46,826 bases of DNA from an uncultured bacterium (GCA_964606555.1 CAZSGU010000003.1:1-46826); one strand, 5' to 3'. Positions 27,507 to 45,197 are shown, numbered from the stretch's first letter. Notes: generated from the sequence alone by a model not told the origin. Numbers and translations are program-made.

Positions 27507-27872
27507 TCAATCATAAGAATGCCAATATGCTAACCCAATAAATAATGCTTGAAATGGTAATCTTCCCCAAGCTAATTCGGGAGAAATATCCATTGCAGCT
27601 CCATTGGTATATGCTAGATAAATATTTGCTGGAAATACAGCAATTAACAGCATAATAAGTCCCCAAGCTGCATGATACCTTGTTTTAGGAATTAAAAGCA
27701 AAACACCAAATAATACTTCAAAAAATCCACTGATATAGACTGCTGCAAGCCCAAATGGTAGAAATGGTGGATAAATCTGTAAAAACCATTCTGGTTCAGT
27801 AAAATGTTTAATACCTGTAGTGATATAAAAAAAAGACATTAACCCAATGGTAAGAAGCTTAATTGTGTTCAT
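27507..27872 (-). CDS. DoxX-like small membrane protein
   Basis: 121 aa with 4 TM segments. The motifs GIKHF and the FEVLFGVLLLIPKTR...AVFPANIY pattern are typical of the DoxX/DoxX-like family. Confidence 0.65.
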   Translation of the reverse strand: MNTIKLLTIGLMSFFYITTGIKHFTEPEWFLQIYPPFLPFGLAAVYISGFFEVLFGVLLLIPKTRYHAAWGLIMLLIAVFPANIYLAYTNGAAMDISPELAWGRLPFQALFIGLAYWHSYD

Positions 27873-29599: not shown

Positions 29600-29605
29600 A
29601 GATTG

Positions 29606-31282
29606 CTAATTTTCCGTTAACGCAATTTGTTGTTCTTTAGGTGCAGTTAATATGGAAGAATACAACGCATTATCAAGAAGGATTTCTAATGATTTCTGCA
29701 CTGTCTTATCATCCTGAAGTAAAAATTCATATCTTCCTTTGTCTCCATCATAATAGAAAGCAAATTCTCCTAATAACATTTTTTTGATGAACTCTTTCTC
29801 ATCATCAAACATAGCAGTCTGTGATTTCTTGATTTGATTTTCAATGACATTAAATGCATTATTTAAGAATATATTTTTTGGTTCATCTTCTTTAACCAGT
29901 TTTTCTTTTGCTTTCTCTAAATCGCCTTCACCATCTACATATCCTGCAATATCATTTTCTTTAATAAAATCAGCAAATTTGTTCATTAAAGTAATGTCAT
30001 TGGCCACTGCATCTAAAGAATCATATTGATCGCTTGTTTGTTGCGCAAAACGGAAAAATCCTCCATTGCGTAAGATTGAAACAGCTAATGGGTATGATTC
30101 CAAATTTTCAACTAAAACATCGGGAGCAATGCCTCCGCCTCCGAGTACTTTTCGTCCTGCTTTTGTAGTAAATAATGAATCTTCAACCGTTACTTTATCT
30201 GTAAGCAATTCTTTATCAATGTATTCTCTTTTTTGCAGGGTACGCCCACTTGGAATATAATATTTTGAGTTGGTAATTTTTAACGCAGAGTTATTGTTAA
30301 TCGCAATCACAGATTGGACCAATCCTTTTCCAAAAGATGGAGATCCGATAATCACTGCCCTGTCATGATCTTGCAACACACCAGCAACAATTTCACTTGC
30401 AGATGCACTGCCTTCATTAATTAAGACTGTAATATCAATATCTTGAGGGAGTAATGCTCTATTTAATGATCTATATTTCTTTAATATCTTTCCACTACGT
30501 CCCTTGGTTGAAACCATCTCTAAATCTTTTTGCAATATCAGATCTAATACGTCTAATGATGAAGAAAGCAACCCTCCAGGATTGTCTCTTAAGTCAATAA
30601 TAATATTTTCTGTTCCTTCGTTCATTAAAGACAAAAACGCATTGTTTACTTCCCTTGGAGTATTCTCTGAGAAATTGGTTATTCTAAGATATCCGACCAC
30701 TGGATCAATCATCCCATAGTATGGAATATCTTTGATGATGATAATATCACGATTAATAGTATAATCATGCACTTCTTCTGTAATCGGTTTTTTAATGGTT
30801 AATACTACATCTGTGCCTTTTTCTCCTCGAATCTTATTGGTCGCATCTTTGAGCTCCATTCCATCAGTAGAAACTCCATCAATGTGAGTAATTTGATCTC
30901 CAGTAAAAATACCTGCACGAAATGCAGGAGAGCCCTCAATTGGCCCTACTACTGTTAGCTGATCTTCATACATATAAATCTGCAACCCTACTCCACTGAA
31001 TTCGCCTGTAGTTTTAATATTTAAATCTTCCAAATCTTTCTCTCCATAATATTCGGTATATGGATCAAAATTTTCTAACATCGAATTGATAATTGTTGAT
31101 GTTAATTCTGTGATATCTAACTCATGGATATATTCAGTAACAAGATATTTATAAACAGTCATGATTTGCTGTTGAGATCGTGCAATTTCACGATAGATAT
31201 CAAGCTGTTGACTTCGCAATAATCCGAAGAAACAAATCGTAATTATTAAAGTTATAAAAGATAATTTTTTTAATTGCTTCAT
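29606..31282 (-). CDS. S41 family C-terminal processing peptidase (Ctp/Prc-like) with a PDZ domain and a long C-terminal extension
   Basis: 558 aa with a signal or anchor sequence. The PDZ segment is GSPAFRAGIFTGDQITHIDG. The catalytic region is DLRDNPGGLL...NEGSASASEIVAG...GSPSFGKG. Confidence 0.88.
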   Translation of the reverse strand: MKQLKKLSFITLIITICFFGLLRSQQLDIYREIARSQQQIMTVYKYLVTEYIHELDITELTSTIINSMLENFDPYTEYYGEKDLEDLNIKTTGEFSGVGLQIYMYEDQLTVVGPIEGSPAFRAGIFTGDQITHIDGVSTDGMELKDATNKIRGEKGTDVVLTIKKPITEEVHDYTINRDIIIIKDIPYYGMIDPVVGYLRITNFSENTPREVNNAFLSLMNEGTENIIIDLRDNPGGLLSSSLDVLDLILQKDLEMVSTKGRSGKILKKYRSLNRALLPQDIDITVLINEGSASASEIVAGVLQDHDRAVIIGSPSFGKGLVQSVIAINNNSALKITNSKYYIPSGRTLQKREYIDKELLTDKVTVEDSLFTTKAGRKVLGGGGIAPDVLVENLESYPLAVSILRNGGFFRFAQQTSDQYDSLDAVANDITLMNKFADFIKENDIAGYVDGEGDLEKAKEKLVKEDEPKNIFLNNAFNVIENQIKKSQTAMFDDEKEFIKKMLLGEFAFYYDGDKGRYEFLLQDDKTVQKSLEILLDNALYSSILTAPKEQQIALTEN

Positions 31283-31920
31283 GATATCAATTTTTCATTT
31301 ACAATAGATGAAATCTCGTTATGAATTTCATCAATTGAGTTTTCTCCATTAATCAATATTACACGTTCTGGTTCTTTTGTGTGTAGACTGGTATAAAAAT
31401 CACGTACTCTTTGTTGAAACTCTTGTCCTTCTTTTTCAATCCTATCTCTGGAAACAGACATTCTTTTGTTTGCTTCTTCAACAGAAATATCAATAAAGAA
31501 GGTTAAATCAGGTTTCAAAGTATATGTTCCAAAATAATTAATTTCCTCAAGGGCAGTGCTGTTTAATCCTCTGCCTCCCCCTTGATATGCAAGCGTAGAA
31601 TCAGCATAGCGGTCTGCAATCATCCATCTTCCATTCAGTAGATGAGGGAGAATAACTTTATCGGTTAATTGTGCCCTACTCGCAATCATCAATAATGCTT
31701 CTGCACGATCAGACATTATTTCTTCTGAATGCAATAGTAGTTTACGAATCGATTCCGATATAGGGTCTCCACCAGGCTCTCTTACAAAACTAATTGATAA
31801 TTCTTGTTTTTCTAGCAATTCTAGCAACATTTCTGCTTGCGTAGTTTTTCCACAACCATCAATGCCTTCAAATGTGATAAATTTTCCTCTAGAAGTAGAT
31901 TCTGTCATCATCTTTTCCAA
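31279..31920 (-). CDS. tmk: dTMP (thymidylate) kinase
   Basis: 213 aa. The P-loop is FITFEGIDGCGKTTQ. DRY and LID-region motifs are present. The start may be one of the downstream Mets (31911 or 31908). Either way it overlaps the rsmI 3' end. Confidence 0.9.
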   Translation of the reverse strand: MEKMMTESTSRGKFITFEGIDGCGKTTQAEMLLELLEKQELSISFVREPGGDPISESIRKLLLHSEEIMSDRAEALLMIASRAQLTDKVILPHLLNGRWMIADRYADSTLAYQGGGRGLNSTALEEINYFGTYTLKPDLTFFIDISVEEANKRMSVSRDRIEKEGQEFQQRVRDFYTSLHTKEPERVILINGENSIDEIHNEISSIVNEKLIS

Positions 31921-32581
31921 TAATAATTACTAATTCACCTTTTACTTTTTTTGACTCAAAGAACTCAACTACACTGCTAAAGTTTCCTCGTACAATTTCC
32001 TCGTACAATTTTGTCAACTCTCTTGCAACGATAATTGGTCTTTCACCTAATTCGTCATGCAATTCCCTCAACGTTTTTAGTAATCGATGAGGACTCTCAA
32101 ATATAATTATAGTATTTTCTAAACTCTTTAAAAAAGAAATTTTCTTTTTTCTCCCTTTTTTCTGCGGAAGAAATCCTAAAAAGAAAAATGAATCAGATGG
32201 GAGACCTGATGCGCTAAGAGCTGCTGTTATAGCGGAAGCTCCTGGAATAGGAATAATATCAATTTCTTCATCAATACATGCTCTGATTAATTTATATCCT
32301 GGATCGCTAATAGTCGGAGTACCTGCATCAGAAATTAATCCAATATTTTTCCCTTCACTTAATAACCTGATAATTTTAGGGATCTTTTTCGTGTTATTAT
32401 GTTCATGATAGCTATCTAAATTGGTTGTGATATCATAATGTTTCATTAACTGAATAGATTTACGTGTATCTTCGGCAAAAATGTGATCAACTTCTTGTAA
32501 GATATCGATAGCTCTAAATGTGAAATCTTTTAAATTGCCAATCGGAGTGGCAACAATATATAATCTACCTTTATTAGACAT
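31889..32581 (-). CDS. rsmI: 16S rRNA (cytidine1402-2'-O)-methyltransferase
   Basis: 230 aa. The N-terminus is GRLYIVATPIGNLKDFTFRAIDIL, followed by AEDTR, SDAGTP.ISDPG and the C-terminal ELTKLYEE..RG. Confidence 0.9.
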   Translation of the reverse strand: MSNKGRLYIVATPIGNLKDFTFRAIDILQEVDHIFAEDTRKSIQLMKHYDITTNLDSYHEHNNTKKIPKIIRLLSEGKNIGLISDAGTPTISDPGYKLIRACIDEEIDIIPIPGASAITAALSASGLPSDSFFFLGFLPQKKGRKKKISFLKSLENTIIIFESPHRLLKTLRELHDELGERPIIVARELTKLYEEIVRGNFSSVVEFFESKKVKGELVIIIGKDDDRIYF

Positions 32582-33888
32582 TACCCTAATTTATCTAGAG
32601 CTTTTTTGAAACAATCTATTCCAAAATCAATATCTTCAGTTTTCACATTTAAGTGAGGACGGAAACGTATAGACTGATGTCCAGATCCTAATAAGATTGA
32701 TCCTTCTTCTAAGAGCAATTCTGCCAACTTATCTCTTTTGTCTCCAGAAGGAAGATCAAATGCACAATATAATCCTCTTCCTCGCGCATTAGAAACAAGA
32801 TTTGGGTACTGTTCCTGAAGTGCATATAAACGATCTAACAAATAATTCCCCGTTTCATCAGCTTTATCCACTAGGTTTTCTTTCTCTATTAATTCTAAAT
32901 AGATAGTAAGTCGCACCATATCAACCAAATTGCCACCCCATGTGGAATTTAATCGACTAGATTCTGCAAACACATGGTTCTCTACTTCTTCAACACGATT
33001 ACTAACCGCAATACCACACACCTGAGTCTTCTTACCAAATGCAATAATATCAGGTTCAGCAGATGTAAAATGTTGATGTGCCCACATTTTTCCCGTAACT
33101 CCGATTCCTGTTTGCACTTCATCATAGATGAGCATGATATCATTTTGATCAGCAATATTTCTTAATTCCTGAAGGAATTCGCATCGAAAATGATTATCAC
33201 CTCCCTCTCCCTGAATTGGTTCAATAATGATAGAGGCAATATTATCTGGATTGGCAGAAATCGCATCTTTTATTTCTGTCAATGCTTGGTTTTCTAATGC
33301 AATCACTTGATCTAAATTGTTCTCTAAAGGAAATGTAATTTTTGGATTAGTAACTCTTGGCCAATCAAATTTAGGAAAGTACATGGTTTTTCTTTTATCA
33401 GGAGAATCAGTTAGTGACATTGTATATCCTGAACGACCATGGAAACATTCTTTAAAATGGATTACTTTCTCTCCTCTTACATTGCTTCCTTTAGCTAAAT
33501 TTTTTCTACGCTTCCAATCAAAAGCAACCTTAAGAGCATTCTCAACAGCTAATGTTCCTCCTTCAATAAAAAACGCATGAGGTAAATAGTTAGGTTGAGC
33601 AACGCGTTTAAATGTTTCCATAAACTCTGCCAGCTCTAAAGAATAGACATCTGAGTTGGTAGGTTTATTAATAGCGGCAACTTTTAAGCGCTCTGATTGT
33701 TCTAATACATAAGGATGGTTATATCCAACAGATAATGAAGCGAACATTGAAAACAAATCAAGATATTCCTTCCCAGTTACTTTATCTACTAGCCAAGAAC
33801 CATGCGATTTCTCTAAGTCAATAATTGGAGACATACCATCCGCTAAAATACTACTACCAATAATTTTTCTAATATCAGATGGTTGCAT
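32581..33888 (-). CDS. lat: L-lysine 6-transaminase (lysine epsilon-aminotransferase, class-III PLP aminotransferase)
   Basis: 435 aa. The N-terminus ILADGMSPIIDLEKSHGSWLVDKVTGKEYLDLFSMFASLSVGYNHP closely follows the LAT family consensus. DEVQTG and the PLP-Lys region FGKKTQVCG are present. Confidence 0.82.
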   Translation of the reverse strand: MQPSDIRKIIGSSILADGMSPIIDLEKSHGSWLVDKVTGKEYLDLFSMFASLSVGYNHPYVLEQSERLKVAAINKPTNSDVYSLELAEFMETFKRVAQPNYLPHAFFIEGGTLAVENALKVAFDWKRRKNLAKGSNVRGEKVIHFKECFHGRSGYTMSLTDSPDKRKTMYFPKFDWPRVTNPKITFPLENNLDQVIALENQALTEIKDAISANPDNIASIIIEPIQGEGGDNHFRCEFLQELRNIADQNDIMLIYDEVQTGIGVTGKMWAHQHFTSAEPDIIAFGKKTQVCGIAVSNRVEEVENHVFAESSRLNSTWGGNLVDMVRLTIYLELIEKENLVDKADETGNYLLDRLYALQEQYPNLVSNARGRGLYCAFDLPSGDKRDKLAELLLEEGSILLGSGHQSIRFRPHLNVKTEDIDFGIDCFKKALDKLG

Positions 33889-33898
33889 TATTATTTAA

Positions 33899-34672
33899 TT
33901 ACCCTTCTGTTCTCTCAGGGTTTTGAAATGACCAGTAACCAAGCGCTACGATAATCAATCCTAACATCCAAAACGTACCATAATTATACGATGGACCAGA
34001 AAATAAGATTAAATCATTAAAACGCCCGATTAACAGAGAAATTCGGCCCATTACAGCGAACCCAAAGGATGCACCAAAACTAATCATTAGGAAGTAAACT
34101 CCTAAACGCGTGAAACGTCCATAGGCTCCAGACTGTTCTCTTGAGAAATAAAAATACATTAGAGCACTTATTGTGCCAATAAAAATAATAATATTATTGA
34201 AAATACTATCTCCAGACATTGCAAAAAATTCTAATTCTCCACTGAACAATTCTACTGCAGTAGATTTAATCTGACTAATAACATTGGAGCTTAAATATCC
34301 AAAAGCTTTCAATCCAGCAGCAATTCCAACCGTGTAAGCAATGCCCCATCTTGCCATCCAATTAATCTGCCTGAATACACTTAATAACATCATAATACCT
34401 AAGAGCAACGGGAAGAAATATAACCCATTGTATTCATGGCCTTTATCAATAACATACATACTTGCAAATGGACTATCTACAGCAAATAACCTACCAAATA
34501 AATTAGGGTAGATTTGAGTCCAATAAAATGTAGCAGCCCAATAAGCAGCAGATACACCAACAAATACATGTTCGGCTATTTTATAAAATGGATTATCTTT
34601 ATAGAGATATGAAAAAATTCCTAACGTAAGAAATGCAGCAATCCAAGCACCGAATATTGTTGAAAACGACAT
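33899..34672 (-). CDS. Module gene 7: polytopic membrane protein, no recognisable family
   Basis: 257 aa with about 6-7 hydrophobic TM segments. Its start lies 1 nt after the stop of the upstream gene. Confidence 0.6.
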   Translation of the reverse strand: MSFSTIFGAWIAAFLTLGIFSYLYKDNPFYKIAEHVFVGVSAAYWAATFYWTQIYPNLFGRLFAVDSPFASMYVIDKGHEYNGLYFFPLLLGIMMLLSVFRQINWMARWGIAYTVGIAAGLKAFGYLSSNVISQIKSTAVELFSGELEFFAMSGDSIFNNIIIFIGTISALMYFYFSREQSGAYGRFTRLGVYFLMISFGASFGFAVMGRISLLIGRFNDLILFSGPSYNYGTFWMLGLIIVALGYWSFQNPERTEG

Positions 34673-34673
34673 C

Positions 34674-35522
34674 TTAGTATTTCCTCTCTCTTCGTTCGGT
34701 AATAAAATAAGCTAAATTTCCCAAAATAATAAATAAGACAATAACAACATGTCCATAAGATTGTGCTGCCATTCCTTGAATAGCAATTCCAGGGGTCTCA
34801 ATTAATTTTTCATATTCTGCTGCACCAGGCATCCCTGCAAGAATACCTTTTAGTTGGCCACTTTGCACATAAGGCATCACTTCATTTACTTGAATAGAAG
34901 TTGTCCCAGATGAAAGAGGAACACCTGTTGGATCTGCTCCATATTGTACCCATTCAAAGGTACCAGGATACCCCGCAGAACCTGTAAACATAAATTGGAA
35001 ATCGTTTAGATTGTTTATTCCTTCCATCATTGGAATTTCACTTATTGGTTTTTGTGCTGCATCAACGGTAAATACTTTACGTAAATCACTTGCTAAACCT
35101 TTTACAATCGCTTCGTTTCCAGGTCTAAATCCTAGCAAAACATAATCTTCATGTTCAACTAAATCATATTCTTCATTAATTGTTTTTAAAGCATCTTTTG
35201 CCATATATAACCCATCAGGCCACAAGCAAGTTATATAGATCTTATGTCCACGATCTTGACTAAGAAGATGGCGCATAATACCTAGTGTCATCGGATGAAT
35301 TTCTGGTCTAGTACTCGGTCCATAATCGAATGAAATTAAAACATTAGAATTATCAGGAATACTATCAACAGCATCATACACTCTTTGAGAAGATGGGGTT
35401 GGTCGTATTGCAAGATCAACAGGACTTAATAGTGGGATAAGTACTGCTAATCCAATCAATATAAAGATTACTCTTCTATCAACTGATCCAAGTTTTACAA
35501 TAATATCTTCAAGAAATCTCAT
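34674..35522 (-). CDS. Module gene 6: bitopic membrane protein (N-terminal TM, globular domain of about 210 aa, C-terminal TM), no recognisable family
   Basis: 282 aa. The TM segments are VIFILIGLAVLIPLL and HVVIVLFIILGNLAYFI. The C-terminal tail is basic (ERRERKY). It has an ATGA start/stop overlap with the upstream gene. Confidence 0.6.
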   Translation of the reverse strand: MRFLEDIIVKLGSVDRRVIFILIGLAVLIPLLSPVDLAIRPTPSSQRVYDAVDSIPDNSNVLISFDYGPSTRPEIHPMTLGIMRHLLSQDRGHKIYITCLWPDGLYMAKDALKTINEEYDLVEHEDYVLLGFRPGNEAIVKGLASDLRKVFTVDAAQKPISEIPMMEGINNLNDFQFMFTGSAGYPGTFEWVQYGADPTGVPLSSGTTSIQVNEVMPYVQSGQLKGILAGMPGAAEYEKLIETPGIAIQGMAAQSYGHVVIVLFIILGNLAYFITERRERKY

Positions 35523-36448
35523 TGATCACCTATGTATGATTTTTCTAGTCCAAATATATATCTCAGACTGGTTACAATAATCCCTAATCCAATACCAATC
35601 ATAATAGCTCGTGCGCCAGCTAAATTAGGAACTGTATAAATCCATTCTTGTAAAGCAGGTAGATAGAATACTGCAGGTTGATCTATAGGCCAACCCATAG
35701 ATGAACCAAGAACTGTCACGCCTATTAATCCTAATGCAATCCAACCAAATACAAACTTACGGTTCTTGAAATATGTGTTAATAATGATTCCAATTACTAA
35801 TACCAATAAATACATAATCGTCCAGCTTGAAATAAGACTACCAATCGGAACTCTTCCAATCATAATAATAATACCAGCCAATAAAAGCAGTGTCGCTTCA
35901 AAATTCCTTGCTCTAAACGCACGATATGATGCTGAAGCAACATAGAATGCTAATAAAGCAAACATAGTGGCTGAAAGAGGTGTAAAGATGTTATCAAACA
36001 TCCATTTAAATAGCCCTCCTTCTGTTTGTATATGGGCTCCCCACTGTGCAGGTGTAATGCTTGCAGCAACACCTGAATCTTTTAATTGATTAACTGCTTC
36101 TTCTGCTGCTCCTTGTGTAAAATACGTACTCTGCACATCGGTATTAGGAATATCAACAACAAAAGCACCTCTCATAAAAAATCCCATAACAAAAACAATA
36201 AAGAAAGAAACGATTGCAACAACACTATATTGCCAACCTGATTGTCGTTTAAGAACTTTTAAAAATTGTAGTTTTAATAGATTTAATGCTCCAAGAAAGA
36301 TTGCAAAACTGGCAATAATATCATACCACTGAGTTGCATCATCGTCAATAAAAGCTTTGATACCTTCGTTTTCAATGAACCAACCAAACAAAGTGAGAGA
36401 TCCAAAAAATCCTACAATAGCAATTGGTATATATCTTTTCCAAATCAT
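35519..36448 (-). CDS. Module gene 5: polytopic membrane protein with one extramembrane loop of about 60 aa, no recognisable family
   Basis: 309 aa with about 7-8 TM segments. The soluble loop reads DIPNTDVQSTYFTQGAAEEAVNQLKDSGVAASITPAQWGAHIQTEGG. Confidence 0.6.
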   Translation of the reverse strand: MIWKRYIPIAIVGFFGSLTLFGWFIENEGIKAFIDDDATQWYDIIASFAIFLGALNLLKLQFLKVLKRQSGWQYSVVAIVSFFIVFVMGFFMRGAFVVDIPNTDVQSTYFTQGAAEEAVNQLKDSGVAASITPAQWGAHIQTEGGLFKWMFDNIFTPLSATMFALLAFYVASASYRAFRARNFEATLLLLAGIIIMIGRVPIGSLISSWTIMYLLVLVIGIIINTYFKNRKFVFGWIALGLIGVTVLGSSMGWPIDQPAVFYLPALQEWIYTVPNLAGARAIMIGIGLGIIVTSLRYIFGLEKSYIGDQ

Positions 36449-36452
36449 ACTA

Positions 36453-37316
36453 TTATCCGACTATATCCAAAAGGTTAAATGAAACAATATCAAGATCAAA
36501 TAAGGCACGCATCACCAAACAAACAATAATTAGTCCAATTAACATCAGCTTAACTGTATCTTGTGTTTTAACTCCACCAATTAATTCAGGTTTTCTAGAA
36601 AGATAAGCGCTTGCTGCAAAGTATTCTTCTCCCATTAAAGTATAATCACAAGCTGTAACAAAGAAAGGAATTTGAGCTTGAGAGGCTGTTCCAGCAATTT
36701 GAATTGCACCAATTCCGTTTCCTGTTTCTGCAAATAGAAGTGATTCTGCATAAAACTTACCCATATACATACATGCAGCCGGTTTATCTCTTTGCATTAT
36801 ACCATTTACTCCAGCTGCATAAGCAAATTGATCATCGGTAATATAATGAACCATGTCTTCATTAAACATTTCTGGTCGTCCTTGGCTAAGATATGCTTCT
36901 TTACAAGATTCTCTTGCTGCCTGCATTACAATAGATCTTGCAACAGGTACATCAAGACCAGTTTCATATTGCGCAGTCATCTGTGCAACATGTCCTAAAA
37001 TAATAACGCCAGCAACTGTTTCAACTTCGTTCATATCCATAATACCTGGAACATAAAGAATTGGCCTACCCATTTCGGTAGAACGACCTACAGCTTCTTC
37101 AACAGCTTTTAGACCGGGAATTGTACGTAAAAAAATTGAATCAGAATCTTTTCTTGCATTTTGAATTTCATTTAGCAATACCATTATAACGGTAAGCAAA
37201 ACAATAAACATAAATGATCGACTTGAATTAAAGATATGAAACTGGGACAAGATAAAGGTCAGGATAACAATTCCTAGAATACCTCCTGCATATATTAGAA
37301 CACGTTTATTATCCAT
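36453..37316 (-). CDS. Module gene 4: membrane protein (2 N-terminal TM segments, globular domain of about 190 aa, C-terminal TM), no recognisable family
   Basis: 287 aa. The TM segments are VLIYAGGILGIVILTFIL, FMFIVLLTVIMVLL and VKLMLIGLIIVCLVM. The conserved-looking core is IPGLKAVEEAVGRSTEMGRPILYVPG. Confidence 0.6.
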   Translation of the reverse strand: MDNKRVLIYAGGILGIVILTFILSQFHIFNSSRSFMFIVLLTVIMVLLNEIQNARKDSDSIFLRTIPGLKAVEEAVGRSTEMGRPILYVPGIMDMNEVETVAGVIILGHVAQMTAQYETGLDVPVARSIVMQAARESCKEAYLSQGRPEMFNEDMVHYITDDQFAYAAGVNGIMQRDKPAACMYMGKFYAESLLFAETGNGIGAIQIAGTASQAQIPFFVTACDYTLMGEEYFAASAYLSRKPELIGGVKTQDTVKLMLIGLIIVCLVMRALFDLDIVSFNLLDIVG

Positions 37317-37581
37317 TTTTACCTAATCTTTCCAATTCAGAGATTAAAAATTCTACGCTAATGCTACTTTCAAATAATTCTGCAGCCCTATAATAACCAT
37401 CTGTTTTGACAAATGCACTAATTATTGGTCCAAAAAATACCATAGTTTGGCTACCAATAAAATTTAATGGTTTTGCCATCTCAAAAAAGAAAATAGCAGG
37501 AGTTACCAACTTTAATTCTATAATTTTTTTAGCAATTCCTGTTAAAAAGTTTTTATCATCTACTGTTAGATTTTGAATCAT
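37309..37581 (-). CDS. Module gene 3: 90-aa hydrophobic microprotein
   Basis: The hydrophobic hairpin is LVTPAIFFFEMAKPLNFIGSQTMVFFGPIISAFV. It has an ATGA overlap with the upstream gene and an 8-nt overlap with the downstream gene. This supports it as a real coding gene despite its small size. Confidence 0.55.
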   Translation of the reverse strand: MIQNLTVDDKNFLTGIAKKIIELKLVTPAIFFFEMAKPLNFIGSQTMVFFGPIISAFVKTDGYYRAAELFESSISVEFLISELERLGKNG

Positions 37582-38699
37582 TGTAATTCAACCATCTCTA
37601 AGTTAGCTCTTGGAATCAAAAAGTTTTTACCATCAATTTCAATTTCTGCTACCCTCACCATTGTTTCAGATTCCATCTTATGTAATTTAGCTGGTAGAGA
37701 AGTAACGGTACCTATCTTTCCAAAATTTGGTGAACGAATTACTCTCACAATACTTCCCTCTTGAATCCCTTCTTGCACATTTGAAAATGAATCTTCACTA
37801 CTCTCATCTTTAAGTGGAATAACAATTTCTGGACGGATTACCCCAGCTCTTATTTGTGTTGCTCCATTAATAGATGCATCACTTCCATCATGTGATTTTA
37901 ATAAATCAAATGTTGCCTTACTCATTGGAATTGATCCATATCCTTCGGTAACAATAAGCGCTGTTTTTAATTTTTCAGTCCCAGTAATTGCAACACCTAA
38001 ATTATATCCTAATACTTCCTTTAAGTCATAATAATTAAATCCTCCAACAACTATCCCAGCAACATTACATGACATTGCTTTTTTATATGCATCTAAGCCC
38101 AAAAATGATCCTCCGATTAAAATTTTTCCAGCCATATCATTTGTAATCTTTTCTGCAGTTAATTCTTCAGATGGATTTTGAGAAACTAGTTGTAATGCCC
38201 CTTGTTTCTCTCCTGCAATACCAAAAATACCTTGGATAAAAGAAGCGCTAGAAGTTACTATAATTCCTTCATTTTGAATCACTTCTCCTACTTTACCGCT
38301 TACATAAGCATCTACCTCCACTGGAATTGGTGCTTCACGTAATACAACTCGCCCTGTACTATCTGAAATAGATTCAACAGTACCATCCACTGGAGATTCA
38401 ACAGATGATTTGAACATGCCTAGCAATCCTGCTGTTTCAGCAATTTTCTCACCTTTTTTAACACTGTCTCCTTCTTTGACAACCAAACAAGCTTTTACAT
38501 CTCTTGGTTCAATATTGAGGATATTATTTACTTTTAACATTTGAACATTTCCCGGAAGAGAAGTTGATGCTACAATCGTTTCTGGAGACAGTTTATCTCC
38601 TTGTTTTACTAAAACTTCTCCTTTCAATGGCAAAATTCTTTCTTTGCTAAACAATGTCTTTTTTAAAACCTTTAATCCTGGAGTATACGAATGTGCCAT
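37578..38699 (-). CDS. Module gene 2: soluble protein with a barrel-sandwich-hybrid (lipoyl/RnfC-N-like) N-terminus, a central alpha/beta domain and a KOW/SH3-like C-terminus; no named family
   Basis: 373 aa with no TM segment. The split hybrid motif is GEVLVKQGDKLSPETIVAS ... VVKEGDSVKKGEKIAE ... SPVDGTVESI. There is no biotin/lipoyl attachment Lys motif (no MKM). The C-terminus GSIVRVIRSPNFGKIGTV is KOW-like. Confidence 0.6.
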   Translation of the reverse strand: MAHSYTPGLKVLKKTLFSKERILPLKGEVLVKQGDKLSPETIVASTSLPGNVQMLKVNNILNIEPRDVKACLVVKEGDSVKKGEKIAETAGLLGMFKSSVESPVDGTVESISDSTGRVVLREAPIPVEVDAYVSGKVGEVIQNEGIIVTSSASFIQGIFGIAGEKQGALQLVSQNPSEELTAEKITNDMAGKILIGGSFLGLDAYKKAMSCNVAGIVVGGFNYYDLKEVLGYNLGVAITGTEKLKTALIVTEGYGSIPMSKATFDLLKSHDGSDASINGATQIRAGVIRPEIVIPLKDESSEDSFSNVQEGIQEGSIVRVIRSPNFGKIGTVTSLPAKLHKMESETMVRVAEIEIDGKNFLIPRANLEMVELQ

Positions 38700-40525
38700 T
38701 AGAACAAATCTCCTTTAGGATATTCATTAACCGCATCAGACCAATTAAGCAAATTTTGGATACGCTCTGAAGAATCTTTTGGTAGGTTAATTGGTCGATT
38801 TCTACCATCAAAAATTAATCCAACAACCCCTCCATAAATTGTAGAACTTAATGGCTCCCCTTTTCCAGCTCCTACATCAATACCTCTTGAAGGTTGTATT
38901 TCAATCTTTACTGGTTCATAAGGAACTTCCAGCATTTCTAAAGACCCTTCATTAATATCAATTTTCTTTGTTGAACCATCTTCAAAACTCAAAGAGATTT
39001 GGGCCATTTGAGACTTTGGTTTTGCCTTACCTATTGGTGTAATGCATGTCCCTAATCTAATTAAACAATCGTTATCAAAAACTTCTAAAGCTGCTTGGCT
39101 TGCATCGTCTTTCAATTCTTTGCTATCAATATTGGCTAAAACCCCCAATTGAGGCATCATAAAAATTGAATCCACTGCTAACTGTGTAATCCCTTCTGGC
39201 ATAAATGCATCAATAAGCATTCTAGCAGATTGTTGTCTACGAGGAGCATGTGACAACACTCCTCCGGATCCTACCAATAAATCCAATTCCATCATATTTA
39301 CAAGAGATTGTCCACTAGATGATTGTTCAAAAGCATCAGAAATTGTTCTTTCTGATTGAACACCTTTAAGACTCGTAGCAAATGCTTTATGCTGAATAAA
39401 TGAAAGCCTTAAAGCCTCTCTTGCAATTGCTTGTTCTACTACTAATTCTTCCAATGATTGCGGAACAGTGGTTGGACGAATCATCTTGTTTCCAATACGA
39501 TTTGTCAAATTGCTATGATCAATATCGAAAGGAACCCATCTTAAGACATTCTCTAAACCAGATTCAGCTAATACATTACAAATTGAATAACTCATCCCAA
39601 GATTAGCGCTTACAGTACGATTAAACTTCCCTTCAAACACTGAAAAAATATCTGTTGTTGCTCCACCAATATCAACTCCTACTACAGAAATATCTTCTTT
39701 TTTTGCAATCATTTCAATTAGAGATCCAACAGCTCCAGGTGTTGGCATAATTGGAGCATCTGTCCAAGACATTAGTTTTTTATATCCTGGCGCTTGTGCC
39801 ATCACATGCTCCATAAATAAATCATGAATTTTATCTCGAGAAGGTTCAAGATTCTCCTGCTCAAGAACTGGACGAATATTTTCCACAATATCTAAGTCTG
39901 AAATCTCACCCAATGTCTTTTGAATGTTGTCATGTGCCTTGTTATTACCAGCATAAATCACAGGTAATTTATAATTTTGACCAAGTCTAGGTCTAGGATT
40001 AGCAGCTGCTAATATTTCTGCTAATTCCATTACATGCGTTGTGGTTCCTCCGTCTGTACCACCTGATAGTAAAATCATATCAGGTCTTAGTTGGCGAATT
40101 CTAGTAATTTTTTCGTGAGGTAATCGACCATCATTGGATGCCAACACATCCATCACGATTGATCCAGCTCCTAAAGCAGCACGTTCTGCACTTTCACCAG
40201 ACATAGATTTTACCACTCCGGCTACCATCATTTGTAATCCACCGCCCGCAGAACTTGTGGATACATAAATATCAACCCCTTTTTCTCCATTATCAGGAGT
40301 AATAATTTTATCTCCATCAAGAATTGTTCTGCCAGACAATTCTTCTACTTCCATTACAGCATTCAAAACACCTTTGGTAACATCCTCGAAAGGAGCTTCT
40401 ACAGTCGTAGGAGCTTCTCCTCTAAATGTTAGACGATAACGATTGTCTTTCCATTCAATTAAAATTGCTTTTGTAGTTGTGCTACCACAATCTGTTGCTA
40501 ATATAGATTTGATTTTTTTACTCAT
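38699..40525 (-). CDS. Module gene 1: GlmL/MutL-type (glutamate-mutase-L / EutA-like) duplicated ASKHA-fold ATPase
   Basis: 608 aa. Two actin-fold phosphate-1 motifs are present: ILATDCGSTTTKAIL near the N-terminus and VVGVDIGGATTDIFSV mid-protein. LLSGGTDGGTTTHV and LLVGSGGVLSHAP are also present. Length and motif order match the GlmL/MutL family. Confidence 0.75.
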   Translation of the reverse strand: MSKKIKSILATDCGSTTTKAILIEWKDNRYRLTFRGEAPTTVEAPFEDVTKGVLNAVMEVEELSGRTILDGDKIITPDNGEKGVDIYVSTSSAGGGLQMMVAGVVKSMSGESAERAALGAGSIVMDVLASNDGRLPHEKITRIRQLRPDMILLSGGTDGGTTTHVMELAEILAAANPRPRLGQNYKLPVIYAGNNKAHDNIQKTLGEISDLDIVENIRPVLEQENLEPSRDKIHDLFMEHVMAQAPGYKKLMSWTDAPIMPTPGAVGSLIEMIAKKEDISVVGVDIGGATTDIFSVFEGKFNRTVSANLGMSYSICNVLAESGLENVLRWVPFDIDHSNLTNRIGNKMIRPTTVPQSLEELVVEQAIAREALRLSFIQHKAFATSLKGVQSERTISDAFEQSSSGQSLVNMMELDLLVGSGGVLSHAPRRQQSARMLIDAFMPEGITQLAVDSIFMMPQLGVLANIDSKELKDDASQAALEVFDNDCLIRLGTCITPIGKAKPKSQMAQISLSFEDGSTKKIDINEGSLEMLEVPYEPVKIEIQPSRGIDVGAGKGEPLSSTIYGGVVGLIFDGRNRPINLPKDSSERIQNLLNWSDAVNEYPKGDLF

Positions 40526-41169
40526 AAATATTGCCCAATAACATATAACAATGTTAGTGGAGATGTCAATATTAAAGAATCGACTCTATCCAATGCACCG
40601 CCATGCCCCATTAATAGACGAGACGAATCCTTTACATTTGCTTGTCGTTTTAAGAAAGATTCAAATAAATCACCTAAAAATCCAACAATGCTGAAGATTA
40701 ATACAAATATGCACTGGTCACCTATGCTGAGAGCAAAAACAAAGCGATCAAATAGCAATATAAACGCTATAGAACCCATCAGGCCACCGAATAGACCTGC
40801 ATAAGTTTTGTTTGGACTAATTGATGGCGCAATTTTCTTTCCACCAATCAAACTACCAAAAATGTACGCAAAGGTATCATTTAATGTCACTCCACAAAAC
40901 AACATAAGTGTAAAATAAGAATTTAACTCGTTATCGATACTGCGCAAAACAAGCAAAGACGAAAGACCAACACACACATAACAGATACCAAAAAAAGCCC
41001 AAAGAATAAAATTTCTATCTTTTGACCTCAAAGAAAGGAATTCTATGAAAGCCATTGTCATAAAAAATACTATAAAAAGCTTGAAAATCCACCCGCCAAT
41101 TAAGACAATCCATAGAGAGAGAGGAAGACCTATTAAATAAACGGGAAGCCTTGATTGAAGAGAACTCAT
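40522..41169 (-). CDS. cdsA: Phosphatidate cytidylyltransferase (CDP-diglyceride synthase), short form
   Basis: 215 aa and polytopic. The signature is SFLKRQANVKDSSRLLMGHGGALDRVDS (S..KR....KD.....PGHGG..DR.DS). Its TGA stop overlaps the ATG of the GlmL-like gene (ATGA). Confidence 0.85.
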   Translation of the reverse strand: MSSLQSRLPVYLIGLPLSLWIVLIGGWIFKLFIVFFMTMAFIEFLSLRSKDRNFILWAFFGICYVCVGLSSLLVLRSIDNELNSYFTLMLFCGVTLNDTFAYIFGSLIGGKKIAPSISPNKTYAGLFGGLMGSIAFILLFDRFVFALSIGDQCIFVLIFSIVGFLGDLFESFLKRQANVKDSSRLLMGHGGALDRVDSLILTSPLTLLYVIGQYL

Positions 41170-41194
41170 ATTAGAAGCTAAGAATAGTTCCTAA

Positions 41195-42085
41195 TTATAC
41201 CAAAAGCTTAATCGCTTTTGGAATTACTTCTGTGCTAATTTTACTACTTTTAACTAAATCTCCATCTAGGTTAAATAGAGATTCTCCCAAAGCATCAATT
41301 TTGAATGATTTCGCCTTCTCTATATGCACATATGGTAGTCGAACATGTTCTCCGCTAAACACCTTTGAAAATAGATTAATCAGTTGAAATCGATTTACAT
41401 CATTTTTAACAATCAATATATCTATTACTCCGTCGAAAAATCCTCCATCTGGAGCTGCTTTCATGCCTTTTCCAGTATACATGCTATTGCATCCCACTAT
41501 AAATGCACATGAAATATCAAATGTGGTGTTATTAATTGTCATTTTTGCATCATAAAATGATCGTTGCAACAATTTAATTATTGAGGCAACATCATAACGT
41601 ATTGTCCCCAAAAATCTTAATTTTTCGGCTAGAAGATTCCCGTAAGAAAACATTCCCCATCCTATAATGCTAATACTCAACCGTACTCCGTCATCAAAAA
41701 TAACCTTATTCACATCCATTAATTGAATATTGTTCTCTAAAGCTCTATCTATTGCATCATGATAATTAAGACAATCAATATCGTGCATAACTGAATTACC
41801 AGATCCAGTCGGAATAATGCCAAGGGGAAAATGAGTCAATAAATCTGCTTGATATAGTCCATTTACCGTCTCATTCACTGTCCCATCCCCTCCAAAAACT
41901 AATACCCTATCAAATTCATTTGGTTTTAGAGTAGAAACATATTCGGTAGCATGACCAGCATAACTTGTGGTAAATAATTTAGGAGAAAATCCCGCATTTA
42001 CTATCTTTTTCTCTACTTCATAGTATACTTTAAGTGATTTTTCTAACCCGCTGACAGGATTAACGATACAAAGAATAGATTTCAT
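41195..42085 (-). CDS. Diacylglycerol-kinase-catalytic-domain lipid kinase (YegS/BmrU/Rv2252 family)
   Basis: 296 aa. The N-terminus is ILCIVNPVSG, followed by the GGDGT motif (VLVFGGDGTVNETVNG) and IIPTGSGNS. Confidence 0.82.
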   Translation of the reverse strand: MKSILCIVNPVSGLEKSLKVYYEVEKKIVNAGFSPKLFTTSYAGHATEYVSTLKPNEFDRVLVFGGDGTVNETVNGLYQADLLTHFPLGIIPTGSGNSVMHDIDCLNYHDAIDRALENNIQLMDVNKVIFDDGVRLSISIIGWGMFSYGNLLAEKLRFLGTIRYDVASIIKLLQRSFYDAKMTINNTTFDISCAFIVGCNSMYTGKGMKAAPDGGFFDGVIDILIVKNDVNRFQLINLFSKVFSGEHVRLPYVHIEKAKSFKIDALGESLFNLDGDLVKSSKISTEVIPKAIKLLV

Positions 42086-42087
42086 AA

Positions 42088-42531
42088 TTATTTATAATAT
42101 TTATTATCACCAAGATTCAGTACATCAATACGAACCTTTGTTGTTCCTTGGTTAACAAATCCTAGTTTTTGTGCAGCTCTATATGATAAATCTAATATGC
42201 GACCTTTTGCAAACGGTCCTCTATCATTAATAATAACTTTAAGTGATTTTCCATTGCTTAGATTGGTTACTCGTATTTTTGTTCCCAAAGGTAGAGTTTT
42301 GTGCGCAGCGCTAACCCTATACATATTAAATTTTTGTCCATTTGCTGTTAATTTTCTATGAAATTCTTTTCCATAATACGAAGCAATCCCTATCTGAACC
42401 TTAGGATGGTCGCGTATCGCCTCAATTTGTTTCCGAGTCATTCCATCAGAATTAACATAATCACCATACGCAATACTTGGACCGCAACTTATCATTATAA
42501 GAGAGATTAGTAATATTATTCTAAGACGCAT
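42088..42531 (-). CDS. rlpA: Septal-ring lytic-transglycosylase-like lipoprotein RlpA (DPBB domain)
   Basis: The ORF is open up to 42573. The Met at 42531 gives a lipoprotein signal (MRLRIILLISLIMISCG). The DPBB core is GIASYYG..FH...TANG..F......AAHKTLPLGT...VTN..NGKS..V.INDRGPF...R..DLS..AA..LG. Confidence 0.82.
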   Translation of the reverse strand: MRLRIILLISLIMISCGPSIAYGDYVNSDGMTRKQIEAIRDHPKVQIGIASYYGKEFHRKLTANGQKFNMYRVSAAHKTLPLGTKIRVTNLSNGKSLKVIINDRGPFAKGRILDLSYRAAQKLGFVNQGTTKVRIDVLNLGDNKYYK

Positions 42532-43612
42532 GAGATAGTTTAGCATTAATTTGAGGAATTTTAAATGGATCATTTACTAACTGAGTTGCCATACCAATTA
42601 AGATTGCTCCTTTATCTCGTACAGCTTTTACTTGATTATAGTCCATGATTCCCCCTGTAGCAATTATTGGAATTTTAGAATTATTATGCACTAATTCAAC
42701 TCTCTTTAAAGTGTTTTCAAATAAAGCAATTCCACTTAATCCTCCACCTTCTTCTGAAAACTCATTAGCATTTAATCCAACCGATTGGGTTGATACATAC
42801 TTTGTATTCCCTACATTAATAGCACATTTTTCAGAATTAGAAAGTAATTCACATATATTTAGAACTTCTTCATCACTACTATCAGGAGATACTTTGACAA
42901 TAACTACATTTGAAGAAACAGATCGGATTGCTCTTATTAACGATGATAAATCTGCTAAATTATCGCTTAAACATTTTCCATCTTGTGTGTTTGGACAACT
43001 TATATTTACCTCATAGAAAACTTTTTTAAAATCTAAAGAATGTACTTTGAGATGTATCTTATTAAAAACATCTAAATATTCGTCTAAACTATTACCTCCA
43101 ATACTAATTCCTACAGGACGATCAAAAGACAATATTCGTTTATTATCAAAATTAGAAACGAAATATTCTAAACCTTTTGTTGGCAAACCCAACGAGTTAA
43201 TTAATCCGTAGTGTGAATTATATTGGATTTCCTGTATTCTAGGTCGTTTATTCCCTTCTGATGGAGCTTTTAGCACTGTTTTATATGTGATACCACCTAA
43301 ACCTAATAATTGCCACTGAAATAGTGCATCTATATCATCTTTAAAGGAAGCCGCAATTAGCGGTGAAGGAAACTTTAAATCAAATAACGAGACACCGATA
43401 TTTTTAGGAATAGAGAATTTAAAAAAATTGCGTAGCGGAGAGTTCATTAAACCACTATTTAAGCTATCTCCAATAATGATAGCTTGTTCTAAATCTCTAG
43501 GTCTTCGAGCACACAAATTAATTATTGTTCTTCTTATAAAACGATAATCTATTGATAATATCTTTGCTCTTGTGTTACTCAACATTAAGTGCTTCCAATC
43601 TTTTTTGAGCAA
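42521..43612 (-). CDS. Dihydroorotate-dehydrogenase-family FMN TIM-barrel flavoprotein with an N-terminal extension
   Basis: 363 aa. The segments are FPSPLIAASFKDD, GLGGITYKTV...P..GN.RPRI, NSLGLPTKG, NISCPNT, GGLSG and IIATGGI. An alternative start at 43585 is possible. Its ends overlap both neighbours. Confidence 0.7.
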   Translation of the reverse strand: MLKKDWKHLMLSNTRAKILSIDYRFIRRTIINLCARRPRDLEQAIIIGDSLNSGLMNSPLRNFFKFSIPKNIGVSLFDLKFPSPLIAASFKDDIDALFQWQLLGLGGITYKTVLKAPSEGNKRPRIQEIQYNSHYGLINSLGLPTKGLEYFVSNFDNKRILSFDRPVGISIGGNSLDEYLDVFNKIHLKVHSLDFKKVFYEVNISCPNTQDGKCLSDNLADLSSLIRAIRSVSSNVVIVKVSPDSSDEEVLNICELLSNSEKCAINVGNTKYVSTQSVGLNANEFSEEGGGLSGIALFENTLKRVELVHNNSKIPIIATGGIMDYNQVKAVRDKGAILIGMATQLVNDPFKIPQINAKLSHAS

Positions 43613-45197
43613 TTATTCCTTGATCTGAAGATGGATGTTTTTCTTTAATCCATTGATAATACACGATAGCACTGTCTTTCTGAGACAATTCATAGTCATA
43701 ATAATACGCTAGAAAATATGCTGCAATATTTGAAGATAATGTCGAGGAATCTTTGTCTAAAATCTGCCTATAGATATTTAAAGATTTCTTTTGGTCAGTA
43801 GCCCAAAGTGACTCAGCAGTTAAGAGAAGTGTTGACGGTTCATGATTAATATCTAATTGTTCATTTTCTATAATCATTTTTGCGTAATCTGATTGTGGAT
43901 ATTGTTCTAAAATTATTTCTTTATATTGATCACCCTCCAAGGCATTTTTTTTGTTATATATGGAATAAGAAGCAAATAAAGATTGTGTATAAAAATCTGA
44001 TTCTGCATGATTATTAATAATGATTTCAAAATAATCTAATGCTTCATAAGTGCTACCAATATCAAATGCTAAAATTTCTGCAATTGCATATAAAATTGAT
44101 GGATTATTAGAAATGTCTTCTTCTGAATCTTTAGTTAGTGCAATAATCTTATTCACCGAATCTCGTTTATTAGAAATAATAATTTTATAAGGAGAATTGA
44201 AATTTTGCTTCATTCCCTGATTCATAAAGAAATTTGCACGTTCAAAATCAATATTTGGGTTCTTAAGAAAGATATTTCCAAGCAAATAGTATGCTTCCAC
44301 CGAAACTTCAGTATTTTGATTGTCTTGGGCTACTTGATCCAAGCTCTGTATAGCAAAATCTAGGTTATTTCTGTCTAGTTCAATCTTTGCCAATTCTAGG
44401 CTTAATTTCCCTTTAATTGAGTTAAAATTTTCATCTAAGAGCAATTGTTCTATTCTTTTCTTAGCTTCATCAAGATCTCCTAATAAACGATACGTTTGAA
44501 TAATCTTTAGATTCGATTCTCGAATCCTTGAAACCGATATTGTGTTACTAAGAACATTTTTATAGTTATCAGATGCTTGTTGATACAATTCATTTCCATA
44601 GGATAATTCTGCCATCTGAAAATAAATTTGTTCTCTAGTTAGACGGTTGCTAGCAGTTTTTGCCCCACGATCTAAGAATTGAAACGCAGAATCCGGTCGA
44701 TCAATTTCAAGATAAATTTCACCTAACGCTAAGTATATACGAGATTCTAAATCTACCAATTCAGTTTCATCCAACAAATCTTTCAAGTCATTAATAGCTG
44801 GTTGAGGTCTAAAATCTTTCCATTTACATAATGCTAACCAATATTTTGTTTCATTTTGAAAGAAAACTTCTTCAGAATCCTTTAATTGATTAAATACTTC
44901 TTTTGCACTATCATATTCATTTTTAAAGAAATGAGATCTTCCCTTTAATAGTAATGCATCTTGTACATATTTACTATCACCATACTCTGTCAGTACTTTT
45001 TCAGATTTTTCAATTGCGCTTTGATATTCCTGAATAGCTTTTGAAGGTAGTTTATTTCCAAAATTTTCCATCCGTATTTTTTCTGCCATCTGATAGTGTT
45101 CTTGCGCATTATAAAAAGTATTGAAATAGGCACAGGCCTGGAGAAAAACCAAAAGACATAAGGATTTAATTATTTTTGAATTAAATTCAGATATCAT
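43575..45197 (-). CDS. TPR-repeat lipoprotein; first gene of the long minus-strand array
   Basis: 540 aa. The signal peptide carries a lipobox (LCLLVFLQAC). TPR-like units recur along the whole length. Confidence 0.7.
   Translation of the reverse strand: MISEFNSKIIKSLCLLVFLQACAYFNTFYNAQEHYQMAEKIRMENFGNKLPSKAIQEYQSAIEKSEKVLTEYGDSKYVQDALLLKGRSHFFKNEYDSAKEVFNQLKDSEEVFFQNETKYWLALCKWKDFRPQPAINDLKDLLDETELVDLESRIYLALGEIYLEIDRPDSAFQFLDRGAKTASNRLTREQIYFQMAELSYGNELYQQASDNYKNVLSNTISVSRIRESNLKIIQTYRLLGDLDEAKKRIEQLLLDENFNSIKGKLSLELAKIELDRNNLDFAIQSLDQVAQDNQNTEVSVEAYYLLGNIFLKNPNIDFERANFFMNQGMKQNFNSPYKIIISNKRDSVNKIIALTKDSEEDISNNPSILYAIAEILAFDIGSTYEALDYFEIIINNHAESDFYTQSLFASYSIYNKKNALEGDQYKEIILEQYPQSDYAKMIIENEQLDINHEPSTLLLTAESLWATDQKKSLNIYRQILDKDSSTLSSNIAAYFLAYYYDYELSQKDSAIVYYQWIKEKHPSSDQGIIAQKRLEALNVE

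Follow-up and report, generated by a model that had tools for sequence, protein, structure and literature searches.

What do the seven closely packed minus-strand genes at positions 33899–40525 of a 46,826-nucleotide stretch of DNA from an uncultured bacterium (GCA_964606555.1, CAZSGU010000003.1:1-46826; the whole stretch is referred to as the window) encode? The genes, termed A–G in the order in which they are read, specify an actin-fold ATPase of the ASKHA type (A), a soluble β-rich protein (B), a small protein (C) and four membrane proteins (D–G). An earlier note, made from the sequence alone, had described them as a translationally coupled module and had suggested an undescribed membrane machine. 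Our tentative answer is that A–G may specify a machine of the inner membrane, built in two parts and powered by ATP, that has not yet been described, a reading that we hold with rather less than even confidence. The comparison of loci on which it draws resolves the unit into two linked sub-modules, [H]–C–A–B and D–E–F–G, with an eighth gene, H, that is missing from the window. The window has a GC content of 31–36% and comes from a streamlined genome; near-identical homologues of D are named Marinimicrobia (SAR406).

Gene order across phyla

A pattern scan of one genome per species found homologues of D in at least 595 GTDB species. The comparison covers 81 loci (numbered with the prefix L), 80 of which are the best taken from these species; their genes were mapped by tblastn and then with hidden Markov models (HMMs). 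The best 80 loci belong to Marinimicrobia (Neomarinimicrobiota, Fidelibacterota), Zixibacteria, WOR-3, Stahlbacteria, Fermentibacteria, Aegiribacteria, Eisenbacteria, Ignavibacteriales, Planctomycetota (Phycisphaerae, Planctomycetaceae and Isosphaeraceae) and 'Deltaproteobacteria' metagenome-assembled genomes (MAGs), about ten phyla in all, and protein names add Latescibacteria and GN15 as carriers. Each of A–G has clearly conserved homologues in many phyla, by which the genes are judged to be real. The genes co-occur across the same ten or so phyla outside this genome, so the proposal that they form a functional unit stands on this point.

Of the 85 D genes for which 3.5 kb or more is available downstream, 83 are followed by E, F and G in this order; of the other two, one lies in a frameshifted assembly and one is an orphan D. 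Junctions stay tight outside Marinimicrobia, with median upper bounds of 7 nt (D–E), 16 nt (E–F) and 10 nt (F–G). In every case in which both were found, A and B form a pair, B coming after A and sharing its strand. The only separation found is in one abundant uncultured genome, in which a nucleotidyltransferase/HepT-like toxin–antitoxin pair lies between A and B (L084:4259-4878); the A–B junction therefore tolerates insertion.

The two sub-modules are arranged in several ways. The canonical layout outside Marinimicrobia is H–C–A–B–D–E–F–G, and the other arrangements are a divergent one (B<A< DEFG), DEFG–C–A–B, and A–B–C–DEFG, as in this window. The eighth gene, H, encodes a protein of about 150 residues with two transmembrane (TM) helices, a small C-terminal domain and no Pfam family. 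It lies directly upstream of C outside Marinimicrobia (L031, L038, L042, L066, L071 at 4917-5369, L077, L081, L025, L028 and L029), and no homologue was found in the window or in the Marinimicrobia loci. C was found in 33 of the 81 loci by clustering of open reading frames (ORFs); in the HMM map it stands between B and D in Marinimicrobia and directly before A in most others. Three loci have H–C–D–E–F–G without A–B (L025, L028 and L029), and there C stands before D. Since H and C are found with A–B and also with D–E–F–G lacking A–B, they bridge both parts. H–C–A–B stands alone in L082, with D–E–F–G apparently about 50 kb away on the same contig, and in a Zixibacterium whose D–E–F–G stands alone, both it and an A–B pair are apparently carried by a single contig of 138,818 bp. 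Of the 34 loci in which D–E–F–G is flanked by 6 kb or more on each side, 19 have A–B within the fetched stretch; its absence from the other 15 makes its link to D–E–F–G looser than the link within D–E–F–G. The claim of a conserved functional unit is thus upheld for the collinear D–E–F–G and the linked A–B, but not for one block of seven genes.

Two or three tandem D–E–F–G sets are present in 14 loci, ten of which also have a single A–B pair, and L084, outside these 14, has the same layout. Three diverged sets occur in Zixibacteria, Ignavibacteriales and related MAGs, either with a single A–B pair (L046, L055, L060, L061, L071, L081 and L084) or with none within the fetched stretch (L034, L037, L048, L073 and L080). 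The sets within a locus are 37–47% identical to each other, and about 62% of best-hit comparisons between genomes pair sets of the same ordinal position, where chance would give 33%. The low identity and the order kept between genomes imply that the triplication is old and has been maintained. One A–B pair beside several D–E–F–G sets is the pattern of a shared energising module.

Two of the loci are unusual in other respects. In L001 (GCA_038281605.1, JAYQJI010000001.1), a Marinimicrobia MAG, A, B, E, F and several neighbours are split into two or three called genes; these are probably assembly frameshifts, not pseudogenes. L006 (CAYVVT010000005.1) is labelled 'uncultured Lentisphaeria'. It has the Marinimicrobia-type A–B–C–D–E–F–G order, with CdsA about 5 kb upstream of A, and proteins that are 54–77% identical to those of the window; the taxonomic label may be a binning or classification error.

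The ATPase and its soluble partners

A (38699–40525, 608 aa) matches the Pfam family MutL (PF13941) over residues 8–469 (E=4e-124; 415 bits against a cut-off of 27), and this full-length match bears out its earlier assignment as a MutL/GlmL-type ASKHA protein. The protein has a duplicated ASKHA fold with hydantoinase-like phosphate-binding motifs. The ASKHA phosphate-binding motifs DCGSTTTK and DIGGATTD are invariant in 34 sequences (A of the window and 33 orthologues), and the motifs invariant across phyla are ATDCGSTTTKAILI, STSSAGGGLQM, SGG.DGG, GVDIGGATTD and SGGVLSHAPR. Mean identity per column is 67%, with variation confined to the C-terminal ~140 residues. The invariance of the nucleotide-binding motifs and the identity of 59–78% between orthologues of different phyla indicate that A is a constrained, active ATPase.

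A scores 222 bits against the NCBIfam model for GlmL, the accessory protein of methylaspartate mutase (NF040745; equivalog cut-off 475), and 209 bits against that for Or-4, a GlmL-related protein of ornithine degradation (NF040744; equivalog cut-off 600); being far below both cut-offs, it is an orthologue of neither. Pfam EutA, the reactivase of ethanolamine ammonia-lyase, is matched below threshold and in one short stretch (12.9 bits; cut-off 27). No solved relative of A emerged when all PDB chains were searched by sequence and by profile, and the sole actin-like match in the NCBIfam scan is to FcmB (E=0.05).

B (37578–38699, 373 aa) is soluble and β-rich, with an N-terminal barrel-sandwich hybrid, a middle α/β domain and a C-terminal KOW-like barrel. 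Residues 70–116 match RnfC_N (27.9 bits against a Pfam cut-off of 25.6); the matches to NqrA_N, KOW (14.9 against 22.3) and Biotin_lipoyl (19.3 against 22.1) are below threshold. The AlphaFold model (pLDDT 81.8) has no global match in the PDB by Foldseek (TMq <=0.18), and its domain-level matches are to BCCP (biotinyl carrier), to the KOW domains of Spt5/NusG and to PA-like α/β domains. The barrel-sandwich hybrid and KOW-like domains read earlier from the sequence are therefore confirmed at the level of domains by Pfam and by Foldseek on the model. The mean column identity of B across phyla is 55%, and more than 8000 homologues are present in the protein collection.

Three identities suggested by these domains were rejected. 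The lysine at the hairpin tip (K97) is not conserved, the Zixibacteria-type consensus being Ser, so B is no biotin or lipoyl carrier; the Biotin_lipoyl match is also below its cut-off. The name NusG, which B bears in some databases, is a KOW-driven misnomer, as there is no NGN match and the KOW match is below threshold. An Rnf/Nqr-like redox pump is not supported either, since the homology is limited to one domain and cofactor motifs are missing. B scores 20 bits against the full-length RnfC model TIGR01945 (cut-off 246) and 18 bits against the NqrA model (cut-off 450), and neither an NqrA nor an RnfC chain is among its 50 best Foldseek matches. It has no invariant cysteines able to hold iron–sulfur clusters and no domain binding FMN or NADH in the Pfam and NCBIfam scans, and the alignments of B, D, E, F and G contain no conserved cysteine clusters suggesting redox cofactors.

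C (37309–37581, 90 aa) is small and conserved; its centre is moderately hydrophobic (consensus VPAIxFLExxKPLSFxGSQxLxFFGPI) and a helix comes after it. It has no match in Pfam or NCBIfam. It had been taken for a membrane-embedded hydrophobic microprotein. No 19-residue segment reaches a Kyte–Doolittle hydropathy of 1.5, and C has no clear TM segment by this measure.

The membrane proteins

Hydropathy marks four of the proteins, D, E, F and G, as clearly membrane-embedded, one fewer than the five first counted. TM segments were positioned by hydropathy, and their inside/outside orientation was inferred from the positive-inside rule and the alignments.

D (36453–37316, 287 aa) is not without a named family, as had been thought of all six proteins other than A: it belongs to the uncharacterised Pfam family DUF6754 (PF20539) over residues 27–271 (E=3e-110; 367.9 bits, cut-off 27). 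No family is matched by C, E, F or G. Clustered at 50% identity, DUF6754 comprises 2033 representatives, and it has no assigned function. D was described as bitopic, with a globular domain of about 200 residues bracketed by TM helices; the bracketing holds, but there are two N-terminal helices (6–24 and 34–52) and one C-terminal helix (255–273), so that the protein is not bitopic. The strongly conserved domain between the helices, of about 200 residues, contributes to a set of 34 residues that are invariant in 36 diverse members, including the motifs GRxTEMG, DDQF and CDY and residues R64, E81, E191, E197, Q206, T210, Q215, C223, D224, E231 and D253. No histidine is invariant among the 36 members, and D therefore has no B12-binding motif. 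In other lineages D carries long N-terminal FN3 or PQQ β-propeller extensions ahead of the TM helix. The AlphaFold model of D is poor (pLDDT 60.8, and below 50 in the most conserved region, residues 165–249). The N-terminal half looks Rossmann-like (α/β) in this model, whose Foldseek matches are generic Rossmann fragments (E>=0.17), and the NCBIfam scan gave a weak eIF-2B-like match.

E (35519–36448, 309 aa) is polytopic, with a core of about six TM helices and the conserved motifs PLxATMFALLAFFVASASYRAFRA and AGQRAIMIGIALG...GIERSYLG. The Marinimicrobia proteins have insertions (residues ~95–140 and ~205–255) relative to the core of ~210–230 residues found in other phyla; one is a predicted insert in a periplasmic loop and the other carries extra hydrophobic segments or TM helices. 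When 37 members were scanned singly against Pfam no family emerged; TMD0_ABC matched in 11 of the 37 (best E=0.003), which we take as hydrophobic noise, and ABC2_membrane_3 likewise gave a weak noise match in some homologues.

F (34674–35522, 282 aa) has TM helices at residues 18–36 and 257–275 that bracket a domain of ~215 residues, with invariant R16 and R17 before the first helix and a C-terminal tail ERRERKY; none of 37 members matches a Pfam family. G (33899–34672, 257 aa) is polytopic, with about five or six TM helices, and has conserved polar residues in or near the membrane: D26, N27, E34, R108, Q134 and R210 are invariant, and the motif YFFFSKEHKG is conserved. No consistent Pfam family was found among the diverse homologues of G (33–37 were scanned for each of E, F and G), and there is no internal homology between E and G, D and F, or D and G.

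The conserved domain of D and the E motifs SYRAFR and GIERSYLG are predicted to be cytoplasmic. Because both termini of F are rich in Arg and Lys, its ~215-residue domain is predicted to be periplasmic, and this topology also fits the FN3 and PQQ-propeller extensions that D homologues carry.

Gene packing and neighbouring genes

The ORF listing reproduces the seven consecutive minus-strand ORFs of the earlier note, and the six junctions that it gave follow exactly from their coordinates: from A to G, a 1-nt TAATG overlap, a 4-nt overlap, an 8-nt overlap, a 4-nt gap, a 4-nt overlap and a 1-nt gap. Subunits made in fixed stoichiometry had been deduced from this coupling. The junctions are sound but the deduction is weak, as the whole window is equally packed (58% of its 36 same-strand junctions are at most 10 nt; median 3 nt). 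The gene for CdsA overlaps A through ATGA, a class III aminotransferase gene lies 10 nt past G, and the genes for RsmI, Tmk and an S41 protease come after it, joined by overlaps. Since unrelated genes are packed just as tightly, packing alone does not define a unit, and spacing in this genome cannot show operon boundaries. Promoter-like sites (61, against 75.5 expected from shuffled sequence) and terminator-like sites (9 against 7.3) are not in excess in the window and leave these boundaries undefined. A scan for riboswitches and other Rfam elements in the window and five other loci gave only two tRNAs, both elsewhere in the window.

The run of packed genes extends beyond the module: 17 minus-strand genes follow one another at 27872–45197, each joined to the next by an overlap or by a gap of at most 25 nt. 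Two of the overlaps, of 53 nt (42521–42573) and 38 nt (43575–43612), involve genes whose listed starts may be too far upstream (TTG in the dihydroorotate dehydrogenase-like gene).

The neighbours of the module vary with lineage. In the window, genes for a YegS-like lipid kinase (DAGK) and a short, 215-residue CdsA lie upstream of A (40522–42085), an arrangement found throughout Marinimicrobia and only there. In Phycisphaerales, PlsX is encoded ~330–490 nt downstream of G (L031:9038-10051 and L038:14169-15182). Lipid-synthesis genes beside the module in two unrelated lineages give a weak hint of a connection with membrane lipids. A small gene and a gene for pyruvate phosphate dikinase (PPDK) stand next to or after the triple arrays of Zixibacteria and Ignavibacteriales in at least six loci (L046, L048, L055, L061, L079 and L049-type). 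In WOR-3 and Fermentibacteria (L042:13168-18761, L066, L059 and L065), G is followed by genes for a TonB-dependent receptor with CarboxypepD_reg, ExbB, two ExbD and TonB. Mutase subunits or domains are encoded neither in the flanks of the module (29.6–33.9 and 40.5–45.2 kb of the window) nor by annotated neighbours at the other loci.

Searches for known systems

In agreement with the earlier reading, Pfam, NCBIfam, PADLOC, PDB profile and Foldseek searches gave no match to transporters or to secretion, respiratory, division or defence systems that have been characterised. The Pfam, NCBIfam and PADLOC scans of the seven proteins returned only MutL, DUF6754 and the barrel-sandwich hybrid/KOW domains. 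Sequence and profile searches of A, B, D, E, F and G against all PDB chains gave nothing below E=0.07. ABC_tran, FtsX, MacB_PCD and ABC2_membrane match none of the seven proteins, and no homology to ATP-binding cassette (ABC), AAA+, P-type or Rnf/Nqr systems was found with Pfam and NCBIfam. A biotin-dependent Na+ decarboxylase was rejected for want of the conserved lysine and of OadB or GcdB homology. A defence island was also rejected, none of the seven proteins matching the PADLOC anti-phage models, as was a plasmid-borne element, D being present in none of 72,556 plasmids. Literature searches on DUF6754, PF13941, GlmL with ASKHA and the carrier phyla gave nothing relevant, and no paper mentioning DUF6754 or PF13941 was found. 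The libraries and literature searched contain no description of an ASKHA ATPase tied by gene linkage to a membrane assembly of its own.

The proposed machine and its alternatives

In the machine that we propose, a cytoplasmic engine would consist of the ATPase A, its obligate β-rich partner or adaptor B and the small protein C, joined in most other phyla by the two-TM protein H; C, and elsewhere H, would be small bridging proteins. In the membrane unit, D would give a TM-anchored cytoplasmic domain, E and G the polytopic core and F a periplasmic domain. A–B would dock on the cytoplasmic face made by the D domain and the conserved loops of E and G. ATP-driven domain closure, which is typical of ASKHA proteins, would be relayed from A via the TM helices into the periplasm, where the domains of F, and in other phyla those of D too, would move or remodel an envelope substrate through transport or mechanotransmission. 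A single engine could serve several paralogous membrane units. We infer the assembly, the coupling to ATP, the direction of action and the substrate from sequence, and the case for novelty is built on gene linkage and negative homology searches. More broadly, the loci might be the first example of a class of envelope machines energised by an actin-fold (ASKHA, GlmL-type) ATPase in place of an ABC, AAA+, P-type or ion-motive motor, with a detachable H–C–A–B engine powering one to three exchangeable D–E–F–G units, ancient and housekeeping-like in the FCB group (Fibrobacterota–Chlorobiota–Bacteroidota and allied phyla) and in Planctomycetota; we regard this generalization as possible rather than probable.

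Several observations weigh against a machine of this kind. The known members of the A family (GlmL/MutL and Or-4) are regarded not as motors but as soluble accessory proteins of enzymes. A–B is not beside D–E–F–G in the 15 loci noted above, and no natural fusions of module proteins occur among the 507 fetched proteins. The neighbours differ by lineage (CdsA/DAGK, PlsX, PPDK, TonB–ExbBD) and give no consistent hint of a substrate. The model of D is too poor to interpret, and a catalytic site would fit the many invariant polar residues of D as well.

The last of these points leads to the alternative that survives best, in which the module would encode a membrane-anchored metabolic enzyme complex: A would be an ATP-dependent kinase, carboxylase or activating chaperone with D as its catalytic partner, and E, F and G would do no more than anchor the complex or act as a channel for a precursor of lipids or the envelope, with phospholipid or lipid-carrier metabolism as a possible setting. 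The nearest named relatives of A are indeed enzyme accessory proteins or hydantoinase-type enzymes, and many of the 34 residues that are invariant in D are polar; its N-terminal half is Rossmann-like, and there is the weak eIF-2B-like match. The lipid genes that adjoin the module in two unrelated lineages (DAGK–CdsA in Marinimicrobia and PlsX in Phycisphaerales) also fit. However, these neighbours are lineage-specific and are absent in Zixibacteria, WOR-3 and Fermentibacteria, and the searches placed neither B nor D in a known catalytic family. A cytoplasmic enzyme would hardly explain the periplasmic domains that F and long D proteins have (FN3, β-propeller) or the three paralogous sets per engine, and we consider an enzyme complex rather unlikely.

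The looser link of A–B to the membrane genes might instead mean that there are two unrelated systems that are often neighbours, with A–B (and C and H) soluble or peripheral, D–E–F–G separate and their adjacency in the window a product of genome compaction. The 15 loci without A–B, the lone H–C–A–B of L082 and the equally tight packing of unrelated genes in the window are what such an arrangement would give. The adjacency recurs, however, in at least six phyla in varied orientations and orders, which inherited synteny alone would not produce; H and C occur with A–B and, in L025, L028 and L029, with D–E–F–G without it; and the D–E–F–G set and the A–B pair of the Zixibacterium are seemingly on one contig. 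Two separate systems are therefore quite unlikely.

A membrane-tethered actin-like cytoskeleton, in which A would polymerise and the membrane proteins would anchor the filaments for shape, division or organelle positioning (cf. MreB–MreCD, FtsA and PilM–PilNO), is suggested by the actin/ASKHA fold of A and by its combination with single-span and polytopic partners, which recalls MreBCD and PilMNO. Planctomycetota are among the carriers, and many of them are reported to be without canonical division genes. But A falls in the GlmL/hydantoinase branch and not with actin, MreB or FtsA, the FcmB match being its only one to an actin-like protein; three paralogous sets and periplasmic FN3 or propeller domains are atypical of cytoskeletal anchors; and no division or shape genes are consistently adjacent. 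We regard a cytoskeleton as very unlikely. That A is a conventional GlmL-type reactivase or chaperone of a B12-dependent mutase, with the membrane genes incidental, is scarcely credible: membership of the Pfam MutL family speaks for it, but the GlmL and Or-4 scores are far below their equivalog cut-offs, mutase subunits are missing from the flanks of the module and from the annotated neighbours of other loci, and D has no B12-binding motif.

If A–G, or these and H, do encode one machine, the coupling of ASKHA ATP hydrolysis to a membrane assembly would be a new energising principle in bacterial envelope biology, and a function would be given to large uncharacterised families (DUF6754, B and the family-less C, E, F and G). 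The carriers are abundant and mostly uncultured, and include SAR406/Marinimicrobia of the ocean, Zixibacteria, WOR-3, Latescibacteria and Planctomycetota. The identity of A across phyla is typical of core cellular machinery, so the function is likely to matter for their physiology. The 1:3 ratio of engine to membrane units is a concrete and testable structural hypothesis.

Comparison with known systems

GlmL/MutL and Or-4 share the Pfam family PF13941 with A. They differ in that A has ~140 extra C-terminal residues, is invariably paired with B and is linked to membrane genes; a GlmL gene would moreover be expected among or next to those for the GlmS and GlmE subunits of glutamate mutase, whereas A has no mutase genes nearby. 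PilM–PilN–PilO, MreB–MreC–MreD and FtsA offer an analogy, in that an actin-fold protein works on single-span and polytopic membrane partners from the cytoplasmic side, but A lies in another branch and has no Pfam match to them, and the partners are unrelated.

B shares the N-terminal barrel-sandwich hybrid of NqrA and RnfC and, like NqrA, is soluble, cofactor-less and encoded beside membrane subunits; E, F and G, in contrast, are unrelated to NqrB–E or RnfADEG of the Na+-NQR and Rnf complexes. The likeness to the type VII ABC systems (MacB, LolCDE and FtsEX) and to GldA–GldF–GldG is architectural only: a cytoplasmic ATPase, a small polytopic permease and a TM-bracketed periplasmic domain, GldG having TM helices at both ends. 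Sequence homology and an ABC ATPase are both absent here, and the energiser would be an ASKHA protein, which to our knowledge is used in this role by no known transporter or mechanotransducer.

A parallel in organization is with the energy-coupling factor (ECF) transporters and TonB–ExbBD. They have no homology to the module, and here a whole four-protein membrane unit is duplicated instead of a single specificity subunit. One EcfAA'T serves many S components and one ExbBD–TonB serves many receptors, which resembles the one A–B pair per two or three diverged D–E–F–G sets.

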